5,624 nucleotides of DNA from a virus (taxonomy: Duplodnaviria > Heunggongvirae > Uroviricota > Caudoviricetes). The notes beneath the pieces are model-generated. The model was not told the DNA's origin. It searched no databases and was given only the letters and a program-made list of their open reading frames with translations. Where the stretch lies: the IMG/VR virus record IMGVR_UViG_2597490238_000004. One strand, given 5' to 3'. Positions 1 through 5,624 of the stretch are shown here, one piece after another (position 1 is the first letter of the stretch; every line of letters starts with the position of its first letter). The position numbers and the translations under genes were made by a program.

Positions 1-63
1 GGGATACTGTATATGTCTGGACTGTAATTGGATGAATTCTATTCAGGGCGGGTCAGGACCAAT

Positions 64-88
64 AAAAAAGCCCGCATCAGCGGGCTTT
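64..88 (-). terminator. GC-rich hairpin with flanking A/T tracts; intrinsic terminator-like, stronger for leftward (minus-strand) transcription
   Basis: Seen in sequence: A-run 64-69, stem 70-75 (gcccgc) pairing with 80-85 (gcgggc), 4-nt loop atca at 76-79, then ttt at 86-88. On the minus strand the hairpin is followed by a 6-U tract; on the plus strand by only 3 U. Confidence 0.45.
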
Positions 89-216
89 AATGTCATAGGG
101 AGTCGCGACTCCGTTGCGTATCCTTTTTTGTCTCCTCACCGTCTGGTCGGTGTCCTGCTGAGACTTATAACTTCCTGTTTTTGTTGGTGTAGTCCTTACA
201 CCGTCCAATCATGATT

Positions 217-243
217 GGCTGGCGGGAGTTGAACCCGAGTCCG
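217..243 (-). other. att-core-like sequence resembling the 3' T-arm/acceptor region of tmRNA (ssrA); putative island/prophage boundary
   Basis: Minus-strand reading GGACTCGGGTTCAACTCCCGCCAGCCA matches my recollection of the E. coli ssrA 3' region (GGACGCGGGTTCAACTCCCGCCAGC, then TCCACCA) at 23 of 24 positions up to CCAGC, then diverges (CAATCA instead of TCCACCA). Flanking sequence on the other side is not ssrA-like, so this is a partial copy, not an intact gene. Identity is from memory, not a search. Confidence 0.4.
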
Positions 244-315
244 TATTTTTATAATTAGCTGAAATAAAACGATTAATACTAACCATTTTATTCTGCGGAT
301 CTTTTGCGGCTCCTT

Positions 316-1215
316 TTATGTCTGGATGTGGTCGTCAACACATCCTCTTTTAAATACAGGCGCTTTTACCTTAGTTGGATCATCTGTTTTAAAGATTTTC
401 AATCGTTCACTGAAGAACATTACCTCAGATCCTTTGTACCGATCTTGAGCACTGTAGTTTATTCCATATACTAATGATGATGTCTTATACATAGCTTGGA
501 TCTCAGGAGTGTTATCGTAAGAAACAATCCAAGGTGTTTTAATATTATTCTGTACGACTTTTGCAACCCTAACATGATCATCATGATCATAATGGTTGAT
601 ATATAAACCTTTACCTTTTATGTAATAAGGTGGATCCAAATATGTTAATGAGTTTTGTGGCAATTGAGTAACTATTTTTTTAATGAAATCAATTGCATCC
701 ATGTTATATAAATCTATTCTGTGACGATTTTCTGATATTTTATGGATTCGAGAAATCAAATCACTCTTATTATAGCGAGCGTCAAGCTTCCATTTCCCTT
801 CTTGATTTTTACCGCCAATTACTCCACCTTTTAATATTCCAGAACGATTTGTTCTATTGAGAAAAAAGGTTGAGAAACCAATTGTTAAAAGATCATGGTC
901 TTTAGGATTATTAATTATATCTTTCTGCCTAAACCATTCATCCATTGTAACTTCTGTTCTTTCAATTAAAGAACATAATTGATCTGCATGATTTAATACA
1001 CTGTGCCAAAAAGCATAAACAGAAATATTAATATCATTAAGGATGATTTTTTCAGCTGCATTTAGATGTAACAGTTTCAATGCTAAACCAGCACCCCCAG
1101 CATATGGTTCGGCATAATGTATAGGCGAAAGATTATTTTCTTCAATAATCCGAAGCATGAAATTTGCAAGCTTGCCTTTACCGCCAGGATAGCGAAGTGG
1201 GGTGTTAAAACGCAT
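316..1215 (-). CDS. Dam-family (D12 class) N6-adenine DNA methyltransferase, 299 aa
   Basis: Translation shows the Dam-family motif set in the Dam order: N-terminal RYPGGKGK (compare Dam LKWAGGK), motif I EPYAGGAG (nt ~1087-1110), LNDINIS (compare Dam ILADINSDL), FFLNRTNRSG (compare Dam LYLNRYGYNG), and catalytic DPPY (residues 194-197, nt 625-636). GAGG sits 7 nt upstream of the ATG at 1213-1215. AT-rich codon usage. Confidence 0.85.
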   Translation of the reverse strand: MRFNTPLRYPGGKGKLANFMLRIIEENNLSPIHYAEPYAGGAGLALKLLHLNAAEKIILNDINISVYAFWHSVLNHADQLCSLIERTEVTMDEWFRQKDIINNPKDHDLLTIGFSTFFLNRTNRSGILKGGVIGGKNQEGKWKLDARYNKSDLISRIHKISENRHRIDLYNMDAIDFIKKIVTQLPQNSLTYLDPPYYIKGKGLYINHYDHDDHVRVAKVVQNNIKTPWIVSYDNTPEIQAMYKTSSLVYGINYSAQDRYKGSEVMFFSERLKIFKTDDPTKVKAPVFKRGCVDDHIQT

Positions 1216-1250
1216 ATGATACCTCTAAATGTCAGATCTAAAGTATATCA

Positions 1251-1289
1251 AAAAAAGGGCTTTATGGCCATCACATAAAACCCTTTTTT
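1251..1289 (-). terminator. Imperfect hairpin in the ATPase-MTase intergenic region; terminator/attenuator-like
   Basis: Seen in sequence: aaaaaaggg (1251-1259) pairs with cccttttttt (1281-1289), with an inner tttat/ataaa pairing (1261-1265 with 1276-1280) and one bulged c. On the minus strand it lies just after the ATPase stop (1296-1298) and is followed by a 6-T run, then the MTase RBS. AT-rich stem, so stability is uncertain. Confidence 0.35.
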
Positions 1290-1295
1290 AATCAA

Positions 1296-3029
1296 TTAGT
1301 TATCTGACAGATATGATGAGATGGTAGCAGAATCGACACCATGTCCACTTATCATAATAACTTTAAGACTCTTTATTAGTTCATTCTTGAAGCTATCCGA
1401 TTGAACAGGATTTTTCTCGACCCAATATCGATATGGGTTATCTTTAACTCTTCCTTTGACTTGGGCCTGAAATTGAGTCGTATGTGCAAAATCTTTAAAC
1501 AGTTTTCTAACTCTCCCTCCATGGTTTTTGTTAACTTTTTTATAATTATCTATAAGGATTTTTAAATCAATCGGAGCGTTACCAATCTTTAGCGTTGCAA
1601 TTATGTCTTTAGCTGTTTTCATAAAAACAGCTTTTGTAAATTTATTTTTATTTTCCCAATATGCATCATCAGGTGGTAAATTATATAAAAACTCAAAAAT
1701 CATTTGGTCTGGAGGTAAGGTGCTTGGAAGCAAACATAAGTTTTTTTCTTTTTTGGCTTTTTTTGCATTAGCACTGTTGTCGTGAACAACATCACCGTCT
1801 AAGACGATCAAGCTTTTAGCTGTAAATTCTGGTATTTTTCTTGCCATTAAGTCAAGCATGGCAGAGCAGCTAATATTTATATTTCCTAATGGATTTAATA
1901 TTTTATTTATTTTTCGATCTGTTATCAATTGTTTGAAAAAGTCGAAACCTTCTTTGTCTTCAAAATATACATTTGCCTTTGGAAGACAAATGTCATCATT
2001 AATTTTTACAGTTTCAACATGTAAATCAGCGTGGATATCTGTCCATGAAAGATTATTCTTTGTTTTAATATCTCCATATGTGTCTGTAAGATATATTGTT
2101 TTAAAGCTATCACTATCTTGTTTTGAACGATTATAGATATCCTCTATTATTAATGGAGAGTGCGAGGTCATGATTATTTGCAGATCGTATTGTTTTGCTG
2201 CTTTAGTTAGAATATTAATTAGCTCTAACTGTGCCGCAGGGAAAAGACCTGCATCGGCTTCATCAATTAACAATATTCCGCCATGATAATCAGAATAAGT
2301 TTCCTTCAATCTTTTAAATGAAAAAATTGCCTGGATTAATTGTCCAACATTATCTTCACCAACAGATACTGATTGGTGATCATAATTGTCACCATGGACA
2401 ACCATTGAATCGATAGTACCTTTTGTTGCTGTTACTGAGCTTCCATTGTTTTTTAGTAAGAGTTGGTTACTCATCATTCTGATTTCATCAGAATTTTCAT
2501 TGATGTACTGAACATCCCGTGTTGAGTAATCAGTCCTTAATGTAATAGGAAGAAGTCGTGCTAAGCTTAAAAAAATAACAGGATGAGTAACGTTTCTACT
2601 TTGGTTTTTTTCCGGTATTGAATCATTTCCCCTGACTACAGGCCTAGATTTATCTCTGTCACTGTAGCTGTATAAACCTAATGTTAGTTTTTCAAGATGT
2701 TTGTTCGATGCACCATCATAGACACTAATTTTGACGTCCATTGAACCAGGAACATCAAATTGTTCTGAAAGCCTAAAATGTTCGCTGAAAGCTGACTTGA
2801 AGCTGCCATTTGTTAATGTTTTATATTGTGTTAAATCAGTCTCAGGGTTTTTGGTAAAGTCCTTTGTAAAGCTAAATATTTGGGCGATAATGCCAAGAAT
2901 TGTGGATTTAGATGTGCCATTTTTACCACAAATAACAGTTAGGCGAGAACCAAACTCGATGTTTATATTTTTCAGTCCGCGAAACTTCACAACATTTATA
3001 TTTTTTAGTTTGGTAATTTGATTTGCCAT
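1296..3029 (-). CDS. ABC-type (OLD-family-like) ATPase with C-terminal TOPRIM-like putative nuclease domain, about 577 aa from the preferred start
   Basis: Walker A GKNGTSKST (nt 2901-2927, verified by back-translation), signature-like SVGEDNVGQ, Walker B ILLIDEAD (nt ~2256-2279), H-loop-like MTSHSP (nt ~2154-2168). C-terminal region has an acidic VYFEDKEGFD motif (E374 of the 594-aa ORF, nt ~1959-1961) and LIVLDGD (DxD, nt ~1791-1799), the spacing and pattern expected of a TOPRIM fold as in OLD/Gabija GajA-type proteins. Preferred start is the ATG at 3027-3029 (MANQITKLKNINVVKFRGL, a typical N-terminus for this ATPase family, GGAG upstream). The ORF track's start at 3080 has no RBS and would translate through a palindrome. 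Confidence 0.8.
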   Translation of the reverse strand: MANQITKLKNINVVKFRGLKNINIEFGSRLTVICGKNGTSKSTILGIIAQIFSFTKDFTKNPETDLTQYKTLTNGSFKSAFSEHFRLSEQFDVPGSMDVKISVYDGASNKHLEKLTLGLYSYSDRDKSRPVVRGNDSIPEKNQSRNVTHPVIFLSLARLLPITLRTDYSTRDVQYINENSDEIRMMSNQLLLKNNGSSVTATKGTIDSMVVHGDNYDHQSVSVGEDNVGQLIQAIFSFKRLKETYSDYHGGILLIDEADAGLFPAAQLELINILTKAAKQYDLQIIMTSHSPLIIEDIYNRSKQDSDSFKTIYLTDTYGDIKTKNNLSWTDIHADLHVETVKINDDICLPKANVYFEDKEGFDFFKQLITDRKINKILNPLGNINISCSAMLDLMARKIPEFTAKSLIVLDGDVVHDNSANAKKAKKEKNLCLLPSTLPPDQMIFEFLYNLPPDDAYWENKNKFTKAVFMKTAKDIIATLKIGNAPIDLKILIDNYKKVNKNHGGRVRKLFKDFAHTTQFQAQVKGRVKDNPYRYWVEKNPVQSDSFKNELIKSLKVIMISGHGVDSATISSYLSDN

Positions 3030-3051
3030 GTTTCTATCTTGCTCCGTAAAA

Positions 3052-3070
3052 TGGCCACAAATTGTGGCCA
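3052..3070. promoter_or_regulatory. Near-perfect palindrome TGGCCACAA-a-TTGTGGCCA between int stop and ATPase start; candidate operator or RNA hairpin
   Basis: Seen in sequence: 9-bp arms 3052-3060 and 3062-3070 are exact reverse complements around a single central base. It sits in the 58-bp gap between the int stop (3088-3090) and the preferred ATPase ATG (3029). Confidence 0.35.
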
Positions 3071-3086
3071 ATAGTTTCATGCTTGG

Positions 3087-3092
3087 ATTATA
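3087..3092 (-). promoter_or_regulatory. Candidate sigma70 -10 hexamer (TATAAT on minus strand) overlapping the int stop codon; possible cargo promoter
   Basis: Minus-strand reading of 3087-3092 is TATAAT, a perfect -10 consensus. The best -35 candidate (TTGAAG) is only 10 nt upstream, so spacing is wrong and no good -35 exists at 16-18 nt. Weak call. Confidence 0.2.
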
Positions 3093-4254
3093 TTGTTATC
3101 TTCTTCAAGCTTGTTTGTCCATCATATTCCTTCAGATATGAGCCATAGTGCCTGAAAAGCATCTCCGGCCCTTTATGCCCCATTTGAGCTGCAAGCCAAA
3201 ACAGGTTTGCTCCCCGGCTGATATGGCGGGTGGCGAATGTATGCCTGGTTTGATATGGATTTCTGTAACGAATACCTGCTTTTCGCAATGTTGGCACCCA
3301 TGCTTTTTTCCTGATTGCATCAGCACTTGCCCAGGGCTTATTGGTCTTTGGATCTTCAAAGACAGTAGCATCCTTCATGAATGTAAATGGCTTCTGATTT
3401 ATCAGCGCCAACATTGCATCTTCTGTCAGTTCAACTTTACGAGTACCGGCTTTTGTCTTTGTTCCTTTGATAACACCGACAACACTTGCGCTCTGGACAT
3501 GGGCAGTTTTTCCAACAAAGTCGATATCACGCCATCGAAGGGCACATAATTCAGAACTACGCAGGCCTGTATGTATAGCGAACCGGAACAGATTCTCCCA
3601 TTGTTTGTTTCCGGCTGCTGTTAGTAATGCATCAACTTCTGCTGGTGATAGCGGATCAACCACGTAGCTGCTTTCTGCTTCTGACTTATCACTTTGGTAG
3701 CGCGAAGCAGTTACCAACGATACGGGGTTAATTTGAAGTACCCCATCGGTTACGGCTTCATCAAGTGCTGACCGCAGGAAAGATAACTGGTTGCGAATTG
3801 TTTTTAAGGTCGTTTTCTGGCTTTGAATCCACGCTTTCAGGATTGCTGGTGTTAATTCACTTGCAGGGCAAATGTGGAGTGAGGCTAACGCACTACGGCA
3901 TTTTTTATAACCACCAATCGTAGAGGGTGAAAGTTTTCTCGTTTCGCAGATTTCAAGGTATTCGTCCAGGTACATTTTTACCGTTTTGCCTGCAGCAGCA
4001 TTACCAAAAATTTTCAAACGAGCAGAACGGGGAAAATATTCCGCATAAATGAATGTTCCCCTTTCGATCTTATTATGAATTTCGCCGAGTGTGCGCTCGG
4101 CGTATTTAATGTTCTTTGGTGTTACTTCCAGATTGGAAAGAGGCTCACGACATTTAACTCCTTTGTAGGTGAAAGTTATATTGATCGTTTCGCCCTGGCG
4201 GTGTTTCCTGATTGTTACGCCGCGCGGTAGTTTGAGCAGTTTTGTCTGGCCCAT
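3088..4254 (-). CDS. int: Tyrosine-recombinase phage integrase, 388 aa, Rac/e14-like with N-terminal arm-binding domain
   Basis: C-terminal catalytic motifs visible: ...RNPYQTRHTFATRHISRGANLFWLAAQMGHKGPEMLFRHYGSYL (R, HxxR and the catalytic Tyr in HYGSY). N-terminus MGQTKLLKLPRGVTIRKHRQGETINITFTYKGVKCREPL resembles the arm-type DNA-binding domain of Rac IntR-like integrases (from memory). GAGG 7 nt upstream of the ATG at 4252-4254. Confidence 0.9.
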   Translation of the reverse strand: MGQTKLLKLPRGVTIRKHRQGETINITFTYKGVKCREPLSNLEVTPKNIKYAERTLGEIHNKIERGTFIYAEYFPRSARLKIFGNAAAGKTVKMYLDEYLEICETRKLSPSTIGGYKKCRSALASLHICPASELTPAILKAWIQSQKTTLKTIRNQLSFLRSALDEAVTDGVLQINPVSLVTASRYQSDKSEAESSYVVDPLSPAEVDALLTAAGNKQWENLFRFAIHTGLRSSELCALRWRDIDFVGKTAHVQSASVVGVIKGTKTKAGTRKVELTEDAMLALINQKPFTFMKDATVFEDPKTNKPWASADAIRKKAWVPTLRKAGIRYRNPYQTRHTFATRHISRGANLFWLAAQMGHKGPEMLFRHYGSYLKEYDGQTSLKKITI

Positions 4255-4421
4255 TTTGCAACCTCACTAAGATCAATCCACCTCTCCTTAACGCCTTCAA
4301 CCTTTAAAACCTGAACACCTTCACGCCAAACACCGCGCTGTACACGTTTGTTTATTGCTTCAGGAGTTTCGCCAGTTTCTTTGCAATAAGTTGAGATTGG
4401 AACGCAATCGAGGTTCAGCAT
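4215..4421 (-). CDS. xis: Excisionase-like small DNA-binding protein, about 68 aa from the ATG start
   Basis: Position immediately upstream of int with its 3' end overlapping the int start, as in lambda xis-int. Size and loose resemblance to Xis-type winged-helix proteins (ETGETPEAINKRVQRGVWREG...KERWIDLSEV). The ORF track starts at a GTG (4431-4433) that lies inside the probable Shine-Dalgarno GTGGAGAA; the ATG at 4419-4421 with GGAG 7 nt upstream is the more likely start. Confidence 0.55.
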   Translation of the reverse strand: MLNLDCVPISTYCKETGETPEAINKRVQRGVWREGVQVLKVEGVKERWIDLSEVAKWARQNCSNYRAA

Positions 4422-4480
4422 ATGTTTCTCCACTTAGCCCGCTGCACACGGGCAGTAATATCAAATTCCAGTCCTGATAA

Positions 4481-4696
4481 TTAATTTTGTTCCCTGGTTG
4501 CTACCTGTTTTATTGGCCTGATGCTGTCCAGTAGCAGACGGCGACGCATGTTTGGTGCACCCCAACGGTAACCAGTCTTTTTGTCGTAGGATTCACAACG
4601 TCCGGCAACCCAGGACGTTTCAGTGGAATGTAATTTCATCCGCTTTTCACCGTCTCGGGTGATAACAATTCCTGTATGAGTTTTTATCACGCTCAT
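4481..4696 (-). CDS. Hypothetical small phage protein, 71 aa
   Basis: ORF co-oriented with its neighbours; its ATG (4694-4696) overlaps the stop of the upstream DUF551-like gene in an ATGA arrangement, suggesting translational coupling. No motif I recognise. Confidence 0.45.
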   Translation of the reverse strand: MSVIKTHTGIVITRDGEKRMKLHSTETSWVAGRCESYDKKTGYRWGAPNMRRRLLLDSIRPIKQVATREQN

Positions 4697-5055
4697 TTCT
4701 TAGTCTCTGGTGCTTTCGGCATTACTGCCCAGTGAGTGATATTGACGTTTTCAAGGTCCCCGACCTGAAATGTCCACTGCCATTCTCCGGTTTCTTTTTG
4801 TTCCCAGGTGTACCAGAGAGAACGCCAGCCAATCAGCCAGCCTTCTCCGTTAGCATCAAATAACAGAACACTTTCATTTGCTGGTGGCAGTTCAGCTGAC
4901 ACTGGTATTATTTTGTTTTCCAGTGCCGCACATTTAGCTTCAAGCGCGTCGAATTTACGTACCAGGTACTCAGCATTTGTTTCGTTCACTTTCAGATCTC
5001 GCGGTACACATTTCCCGCGAAGAAACCCTTCCATTTCGAAAACATTCATGCGCAT
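4693..5055 (-). CDS. DUF551-like prophage protein, 120 aa
   Basis: Trp-rich C-terminal half (GWLIGWRSLWYTWEQKETGEWQWTF...HWAVMP) resembles the DUF551 family common in enterobacterial lambdoid prophages (from memory). GGAG 8 nt upstream of the ATG at 5053-5055. Overlaps the upstream HD gene stop by 10 nt. Confidence 0.6.
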   Translation of the reverse strand: MRMNVFEMEGFLRGKCVPRDLKVNETNAEYLVRKFDALEAKCAALENKIIPVSAELPPANESVLLFDANGEGWLIGWRSLWYTWEQKETGEWQWTFQVGDLENVNITHWAVMPKAPETKK

Positions 5056-5582
5056 TTGCGTAACTCCGATAACTCGTTAAAACGTTCCATAAACATCCCG
5101 TAGGCGTGGCCCGGTGCCAGTGGAATCACGTTGAACATCTCTGTTGCCGGGATGCCTTCCAGTACAGGCCAGAAAGAGCCATCATCAAGCCCGAGATCAC
5201 GGCGTTCGGTTGCCAGCATGATTAGATCGGCATATTTCACAGGCGTACTCATAACCGGGGGCAACTCGTATTTCTCACGGATTACTGCGTCTATTTTTTC
5301 TTCCATCCGTTTATAGTCAGGAAGAAGGCGTTTCAGTGGTGCGGGGATGTCCTGGCAATACGCTTCTGTTGCATCATGCATTAACGCTTCAAAAGCAAAT
5401 TCCTGCGGCACCAGCTGGCTGCAAAGCACCGCATGTTGGGCGACGCTGTAGAAGTGAGAAAGATGACCGGCAAAGCGGCAGATATTTGAAAGGGAAACCG
5501 CGATATCGTTAATCACGATGTCGTCTTTATTTATCTTGTCATAGTAAAAATGCTTCCCGGAAAAAGTTTTAATAAATGACAT
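5046..5582 (-). CDS. HD-domain phosphohydrolase (YfbR-like 5'-deoxynucleotidase family), about 178 aa from the ATG start
   Basis: HD-domain metal-binding motifs visible: ...GHLSHFYSVAQHAVL... (His) and ...ALMHDATEAY... (His-Asp), with a YfbR-like DIPAPLK segment. The ORF track starts at GTG 5607-5609, but the ATG at 5580-5582 is preceded by GGAG at 6 nt spacing (GTGGAGAACAAAATG) and is the more likely start. Confidence 0.75.
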   Translation of the reverse strand: MSFIKTFSGKHFYYDKINKDDIVINDIAVSLSNICRFAGHLSHFYSVAQHAVLCSQLVPQEFAFEALMHDATEAYCQDIPAPLKRLLPDYKRMEEKIDAVIREKYELPPVMSTPVKYADLIMLATERRDLGLDDGSFWPVLEGIPATEMFNVIPLAPGHAYGMFMERFNELSELRKCA

Positions 5583-5624
5583 TTTGTTCTCCACGTATAT
5601 GCGCTGCACCGCGCTGAATTCGGG

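Follow-up and report, generated by a model that had tools for sequence, protein, structure and literature searches.

Lesions at the 3' end of ssrA that go with integrated elements have been described before. Onodera et al. (2022; PMC10107115), citing Williams (2003) and Wang (2009), list them as 'prophage excision-induced mutations', and their Table 1 gives the string CGCCAGC-CCACCA (delta-T357) for CP4-57 of E. coli K-12, CGCCAGC-----CA for Eco48X of E. coli RS218, Oi108 of O157 EDL933 and Stm27X of Salmonella LT2, a four-base gap, CCCCAGC----CCA, for Yersinia pestis, and an intact ssrA end for Ecoc48X of CFT073. Eco48X and Ecoc48X are ~48-kb ssrA elements of B2 extraintestinal E. coli, according to Williams (2003) as cited in that paper. 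Excision of CP4-57 transfers delta-T357 to ssrA and abolishes trans-translation, with ribosome rescue passing to ArfA, and the lesions from other listed bacteria also inactivate E. coli tmRNA when put into it (PMC10107115). Integration at this end of the gene has been demonstrated experimentally for Citrobacter phage phiNP, which lysogenizes E. coli K-12; its attachment site, mapped to the ssrA 3' end, is the 25-bp stretch GGTTCAACTCCCGCCAGCTCCACCA, and the gene is regenerated upon integration (PMC6456863; PMC3072379). The GenBank record of phiNP (OR565852.1) is marked circular but is in prophage coordinates, with the 25-bp ssrA core (1-25) present at both ends and therefore duplicated. The tDNA islands of the Islander collection (PMC4383910) have the same general layout, with the target regenerated at one end, a displaced direct fragment at the other and an internal tyrosine integrase.

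The element considered here does not differ from such islands in kind; its int is found at the same end as the fragment and is separated from the junction by two cargo genes. We consider it highly probable that positions 216-243 of the window, by which we mean the whole stretch of 5,624 nucleotides analysed, are the attR of a phiNP-like lambdoid prophage put into the ssrA 3' end by its tyrosine integrase. The window is laid out as follows.

1 to 215, minus strand: B' arm, the chromosomal sequence natively found 3' of ssrA (trailer and terminator), which runs to glaH past base 1; outside the prophage, as judged from the empty-site composite.
60 to 88, minus strand: intrinsic terminator belonging to the native ssrA transcription unit, AAAGCCCGCTGATGCGGGCTTT plus a run of T (terminator scan: stem from 88 to 67, 9 pairs, T tail).
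205 to 218, no strand: perfect 14-bp palindrome CCAATCATGATTGG, starting in the ssrA CCA end (read from the sequence).
216 to 217, minus strand: CA, the two bases that close the CCA end of ssrA, with TCCAC deleted between 218 and 217 (two-end alignment; intact in JJ1886).
218 to 237, minus strand: core identity block CGGGTTCAACTCCCGCCAGC, an exact ssrA match with the T-stem, the T-loop (TTCAACT, 227-233) and the beginning of the acceptor's 3' strand.
238 to 243, minus strand: ssrA-like extension within the phage P arm, CGGACT, in which T238 is phage-type and ssrA has G (prophage comparison).
244 to 315, minus strand: phage P arm, a non-coding stretch separating the core from the last cargo gene (conserved blocks).
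316 to 1215, minus strand: cargo gene 2, a D12-class DNA adenine methyltransferase (Pfam MethyltransfD12, 1.8e-19; PADLOC PD-Lambda-5_B, 2e-124, full length).
1296 to 3080, minus strand: cargo gene 1, an AAA_15/AAA_21 ATPase, RefSeq start at window 3029 (Pfam; PADLOC PtuA-, GajA- and AriA-like ATPase models).
3088 to 4254, minus strand: tyrosine integrase with an N-terminal arm-binding domain (Pfam Arm-DNA-bind_2, Phage_int_SAM_5, Phage_integrase).
4215 to 4433, minus strand: excisionase (xis) candidate (its homologue in phiNP carries the annotation xis).

On the minus strand, window 243 to 218 reads CGGACTCGGGTTCAACTCCCGCCAGC and its ssrA counterpart CGGACGCGGGTTCAACTCCCGCCAGC, an identity of 25/26 in which the sole mismatch is a T instead of G at window 238, so that an exact run of 20 nt (218-237) remains. 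The E. coli gene ends in …CGGACGCGGGTTCAACTCCCGCCAGCTCCACCA, and the exact run takes in its T-stem, its T-loop and the beginning of the acceptor's 3' strand. With up to 3 mismatches tolerated, a pattern search hit the window at this site alone and gave no hit in 200 shuffles. Exactly five bases (TCCAC, or equally CTCCA) are gone between window 218 and 217, which may be written CCAGC[TCCAC]CA; the final CA (217-216) is kept and the downstream sequence of ssrA goes on 3' of it. The stretch is a fragment and not a gene, because ARAGORN finds no tRNA or tmRNA gene in the window and the Rfam tmRNA model touches it only weakly, over 15 nt (223-237), with 12.9 bits against a gathering score of 47; the complete set of tRNA-like domain, tag reading frame and CCA end that a functional tmRNA gene requires is lacking. 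Such blanks are expected for a fragment of 26 nt and are not counted against the ssrA match. An earlier, sequence-only reading of this DNA had picked out 23 nt of the ssrA T-arm and acceptor region on the minus strand, and the resemblance proves real and slightly longer (25/26, 218-243). It had also correctly placed the fragment in the orientation of int and about 70 bp past the last cargo gene (72 bp from the methylase stop codon, 316-318), with non-ssrA sequence on its 5' side, which from window 244 onward is phage P arm. Its statement that the terminal TCCACCA is lacking holds in part, for bases are indeed missing there, but only TCCAC is gone and the final CA is retained.

The chromosomal context of the fragment is seen in complete genomes, six of which (all E. 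coli) are 100% identical to window 1-320. In MS21324 the order in the ssrA direction is smpB, ssrA, a lambdoid prophage, xis, int, the AAA ATPase, the DNA adenine methylase, the fragment and glaH-lhgO-gabDTP, and the prophage looks complete, having tail, head, terminase, lysis, Q, replication and cI/cro genes. An intact ssrA (363 nt, ending …CCAGCTCCACCA) stands at the opposite prophage end, 44,152 bp (44.15 kb) from the fragment and in direct orientation. Between the prophage ends there is an imperfect repeat of ~181 aligned bases that runs from CGGAC through the ssrA end and a further ~150 bp to the terminator hairpin and its T run; the two ends differ by scattered substitutions and a single 5-bp gap, CCAGCTCCACCAATCATG at the ssrA end against CCAGC-----CAATCATG in the window. 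We then built the predicted empty site by joining the intact ssrA to window 215->1 and further flank. Many island-free, single-copy genomes contain this composite with 100% identity over 604 nt, 936 genomes cover at least 80% of it, and window 1-215 is therefore the native trailer and terminator of ssrA. The discriminating SNPs in 1-215 are all of the chromosomal type found in empty sites and not of the phage type, and in empty-site genomes the native terminator of ssrA lies ~150 nt beyond the CCA end. Four marks of an attR in a tRNA or tmRNA gene are present: an intact target at the opposite end, a displaced direct 3' fragment, an internal tyrosine integrase and an uninterrupted site in relatives; the fifth, demonstrated integration or excision, comes from experiments on the 93%-identical integrase of phiNP (PMC6456863; PMC3072379), and the natural states of WB61 and GN4143 described below are consistent with traffic at the site.

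In these respects the sequence-only reading had anticipated the outcome well. It had proposed an attR-type duplicate and, as a check, a search for a repeat of the core about one prophage length away, and the intact ssrA does lie at the far end of a single lambdoid prophage, at a distance of 44 kb, with the ~181-base imperfect direct repeat at the ssrA end; it had put the element boundary at ~217-243 with 1-216 outside, and island-free genomes have ssrA fused to window 215->1 and on towards glaH, the junction falling exactly where the empty-site comparison predicts, at 100% identity. The alternative that it kept, an attP core in free phage DNA, fails because window 1-215 is chromosomal and runs into glaH. 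It had also allowed that 1-315 might turn out to be contiguous phage DNA, and no phage of the collection searched bears this out: in a megablast of the whole window against that collection 1-357 matches none, phiNP alone matches int-cargo, and generic lambdoid matches cover 4481-5624.

The integrase of the window is 93% identical to that of phiNP and 97% identical to that of the UTI89 ssrA prophage, and the xis-int-ATPase-methylase block has 85% DNA identity to phiNP (OR565852.1). The xis candidate (4215..4433) has no Pfam match; it overlaps the first part of int by 40 nt on the minus strand (window 4215-4254). The two phages share the ssrA 3' end as target, the P' arm of phiNP likewise contains a homologue of the ssrA trailer, and the core block 218..237 overlaps the experimentally defined 25-bp phiNP core (PMC6456863). 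They differ in that the phiNP junctions keep the full 25-bp core with TCCACCA whereas the attR of the window is without TCCAC, in that the phage-type mismatch in the P arm falls at another base (GCTGG vs ACTCGGG), and in the remainder of the prophage, which is a different lambdoid mosaic.

Where the strands were exchanged can be narrowed down by comparison with JJ1886 (ST131), whose prophage has an identical Int protein (WP_001596854.1) and shares cargo and P arm with the window, down to the phage-type T that corresponds to window 238. The JJ1886 junction, CCAGCTCCACCAAATAATG, has the core intact (TCCACCA) followed by the flank variant AAATAATG, and this variant is the native post-ssrA sequence of island-free ST131-type genomes. 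The intact core together with the lineage-native flank places the crossover 5' of the ssrA end; the phiNP mismatch sets the other limit, and the exchange therefore lies within GGTTCAACTCCCGCCAGC(TCCACCA). Within the window's genome alone, the SNPs bracket the crossover to window 192-237. T238 is common to the prophages of the window, JJ1886 and UTI89, and the ssrA of the same genomes has G. We infer that the strand-exchange site lies within the core block 218..237. The palindrome CCAATCATGATTGG is disrupted to CCAAATAATGATTGG in ST131 strains and ST131-type genomes. The junction fixes the right-hand boundary of the prophage to within 20 bp and places the methylase and ATPase cargo inside the element.

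The other end of the prophage is informative as well. The sequence beside ssrA in the lysogen differs from the native flank, and at the discriminating positions it agrees with the JJ1886 prophage arm and with phiNP; since it agrees with these and not with the native flank, the sequence adjoining ssrA is the phage P' arm. The phage accordingly arrives with an ssrA 3' end, a trailer and a terminator of its own, and the working ssrA 3' end is of phage origin. Phage P' arm (positions 4833-4990 of the locus) and chromosomal trailer and terminator (window 215-60) are ~90% homologous, and their differences in an internal hairpin are compensatory, GGAGCCGCGGCTCC in the phage and GGAGTCGCGACTCC in the chromosome, which suggests that the structure of the trailer matters.

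Two further parts of the prophage deserve a description. In the P arm, the blocks AAAAGGAGCCGCA and AAAAGATCCGCA (window 293-317, reaching 2 nt into the methylase stop codon) are kept in four otherwise diverged P arms, those of the window, UTI89, p4A and phiNP, and they are candidate sites for arm-type binding of Int or for an accessory protein. Just past the methylase stop codon, window 293-317 contains two adjacent copies of AAAAG-NN-CCGCA; a plus-strand scan reports a weak hairpin resembling a terminator in the same region. Between int and attR, the slot that corresponds to window 316-3080 is occupied by three unrelated genes in UTI89, including one for a STAS-like protein, and by one hypothetical gene in p4A; its contents being unrelated among sister prophages, it behaves as a variable defence/moron slot. 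The methylase and ATPase pair was considered as a PD-lambda-5 system and is not called as one, since PD-Lambda-5_A is absent from the best 25 PADLOC matches of the ATPase.

The 5-bp lesion itself is not tied to this prophage. UTI89 has the same lesion beside a different phiNP-like P arm with other cargo, and CAVP773, O157:H7 TW14359 and 30COLEC have it beside three unrelated element types, by which a deletion private to the six genomes identical over 1-320 is ruled out; a fragment with both the T variant and the deletion occurs in ~125 of 5,426 complete genomes (at least 99% identity). The block from the T-stem to CCAGC is perfectly kept in all lesion-bearing junctions of phiNP-like prophages and in that of the CAVP773 element. 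Other lesion states are a 4-bp deletion in 2009C-3133 and a 1-bp deletion in K-12 (pseudogene psaA) and MS20677, and all of them start after CCAGC. Both flank haplotypes, glaH-adjacent and ypjA-adjacent, show the 5-bp lesion and more than one lesion state, so that the 5-bp lesion would have either recurred or been moved by recombination. Simple slippage suffices to derive the three states from one another: CAGCTCCACCA minus T gives CAGCCCACCA, loss of one CCA repeat then gives CAGCCCA, and loss of one C gives CAGCCA. We found no prior statement of such a series linking the lesion states in the literature consulted, in which Williams (2003) is represented by the paper citing it. The lesion thus appears to track the chromosomal side rather than any one phage, which would put it 3' of the crossover; most likely it is a chromosomal-side lesion, inherited from earlier islands at the site, and no product of this phage. 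What the sequence-only reading called a 'mismatch with a simple attL/attR model' is a real anomaly, but not a sign of another type of site; it is the known 5-bp lesion of Table 1 in PMC10107115.

The window string CGCCAGC-----CA is indeed the RS218-type string of that table, with the deletion in the acceptor 3' strand right after CGCCAGC. The contrast between a lesion in RS218 and an intact end in CFT073 parallels that between the window or UTI89 and JJ1886, RS218 being compared through its tabulated string; in UTI89, a close relative, the cargo between int and attR differs from that of the window. Like the window, psaA of K-12 (b4645), at the attR of CP4-57, is a displaced 3' fragment of ssrA with the same trailer and terminator and a deletion right after CCAGC. 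Unlike the window, its lesion is of 1 nt (delta-T357), one further C is missing, and ypjA, not glaH, follows; CP4-57 is moreover a cryptic island of the P4 type, whose integrase is another one and whose identity block is shorter. The feature described here is thus an ordinary prophage junction of a kind already known, with a lesion already documented, and it adds a further example to CP4-57 and the ssrA islands catalogued by Williams without a new principle.

How such an arrangement might work can be sketched as follows. The attP would duplicate the final ~27 nt of ssrA, and behind them would come a phage homologue, ~150 bp long, of the ssrA trailer and terminator. Integration would exchange strands in the shared block CGGGTTCAACTCCCGCCAGC, most likely at the T-loop (window 227-233), where the T-stem halves (CGGG/CCCG) might act as inverted core sites, as the symmetry of the T-arm and the crossover limits suggest. 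After integration the working ssrA would consist of a chromosomal 5' part and a phage-supplied 3' end, and the original chromosomal 3' end would be displaced by 44 kb to a place beside int and the cargo, where it would be the fragment of the window. As this displaced end is defective, the only working tmRNA 3' end of the lysogen is the one that the phage supplies. The lesion would be harmless as long as the prophage is in place; excision would hand the deletion to ssrA, and the tmRNA would be inactivated by loss of the G3:U pair partner, or of the strand pairing with G1-G3, and of a proper CCA end, becoming unchargeable. Such a scheme implies an intact attP, …GGACTCGGGTTCAACTCCCGCCAGCTCCACCAATCATG…, and an emptied attB with the five bases deleted, …GGACGCGGGTTCAACTCCCGCCAGCCAATCATG…. 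By analogy with CP4-57 and with the natural case of WB61 below, we infer that excision of this prophage should yield a defective ssrA.

Two genomes may show natural states of the site related to this scheme. E. coli WB61 (NZ_CP020025.1, positions 2620-2660 of the locus), a wild-bird isolate, is island-free and its ssrA reads …GGACGCGGGTTCAACTCCCGCCAGCCAATCATG…, with the chromosomal G and the 5-bp deletion; among the best 12 matches listed from the 5,426 genomes, it is the sole full-length match of the same length to the delta-5 query. RefSeq annotates this ssrA as a tmRNA of 359 nt. From its sequence WB61 is predicted to be naturally tmRNA-defective, and its ssrA is the product expected after excision of an island across the lesion. 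In GN4143 (positions 6090-6430 of the locus), a window-type prophage with the same cargo and P arm stands in tandem with a CP4-57-like island that has its own integrase, and at the hybrid junction inside the tandem TCCACCA is intact and leads into a CP4-57-type arm; this tandem is a plausible intermediate towards the arrangement of the window. Departure of the older island would then join the phage P arm to the old decayed fragment. Alternatively, a phage entering a damaged ssrA such as that of WB61 would produce the same arrangement and at the same time repair the gene. Either of these routes, or a fresh deletion, may have given rise to the arrangement of the window.

Other explanations of the junction have to be weighed against the attR reading. 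That the stretch resembles ssrA by chance, or is a tRNA-like relic of unrelated origin, might seem to be favoured by the absence of an ARAGORN gene and the Rfam tmRNA score far below threshold, but none of 200 shuffles reproduces the match, which lines up in the same register with the longer repeat of the ssrA flank and sits at the very junction that the empty site predicts, and we give this view practically no credence; an assembly artefact is dismissed as well, with ~125 independent complete genomes having the same lesion. Next to no weight goes either to the view that the window is free phage DNA, with the stretch as attP core and 1-216 as the other phage arm. Bases 1-215 are ~90% similar to the phage-borne arm beside ssrA, and the two are easily confused by eye; however, their SNPs are of the chromosomal type, window 1-320 is found at 100% identity in six E. 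coli chromosomes and continues into glaH-lhgO-gabDTP, and in the phage collection the sole match to int-cargo is phiNP and 1-357 has none. We regard as improbable, to a lesser degree than these two, a phage-borne origin of the deletion, in which attP would be a degenerate mimic of ssrA (…CCAGC-CAATCATG…), exchange would take place downstream in the palindrome CCAATCATGATTGG, and ssrA would be wholly chromosomal and restored by excision. The crossover bracket from a single genome, 237 to 192, does include the lesion, and the palindrome resembles a possible recombinase site. Yet in JJ1886 the same integrase (WP_001596854.1) and P arm adjoin an intact TCCACCA and the native flank polymorphism of the lineage, the lesion also accompanies four other, unrelated left arms and is present in the island-free ssrA of WB61, the mapped core of phiNP is the last 25 bp of ssrA (PMC6456863), and the analogous lesion of K-12 passes to ssrA on excision (PMC10107115).

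The rival that we take most seriously, while still thinking it unlikely, accepts the junction as a true attR and supposes that the lesion cuts into the core site or overlap of the integrase, so that the prophage would be grounded, locked into the chromosome, and there would be no switch that damages ssrA. The deletion starts 9 bp from the T-loop, inside the 25-bp identity block of phiNP (PMC6456863), and if the right-hand core site or the overlap reaches into TCCAC the lesion would block excision rather than be transferred by it; furthermore, no excision product of this prophage type is seen, and the lesion-bearing junctions persist in ~125 genomes. On the other hand, WB61 shows that some element left across the same lesion, CP4-57 excises across its own delta-T lesion (PMC10107115), and the perfect conservation from the T-stem to CCAGC in the lesion junctions looks as if the functional core ended there.

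If, as we believe, the junction is an attR whose lesion lies on the chromosomal side, then in a strain with this prophage the functional 3' end of tmRNA, its trailer and its terminator are phage DNA. Curing or inducing the prophage is predicted to leave an ssrA-defective host, which bears on ribosome rescue, on phage growth and on strain engineering. One may speculate further, in a proposal that we hold doubtful, that the decayed ssrA end is a long-lived chromosomal 'hostage' that outlasts successive islands, each newcomer giving the host its sole working tmRNA 3' end, so that curing or induction would produce tmRNA-null survivors dependent on ArfA rescue. The delta-1, delta-4 and delta-5 states seen in several genera might then reflect selection for retention of the island, or a mutational hot spot linked to the recombinase, rather than neutral decay.
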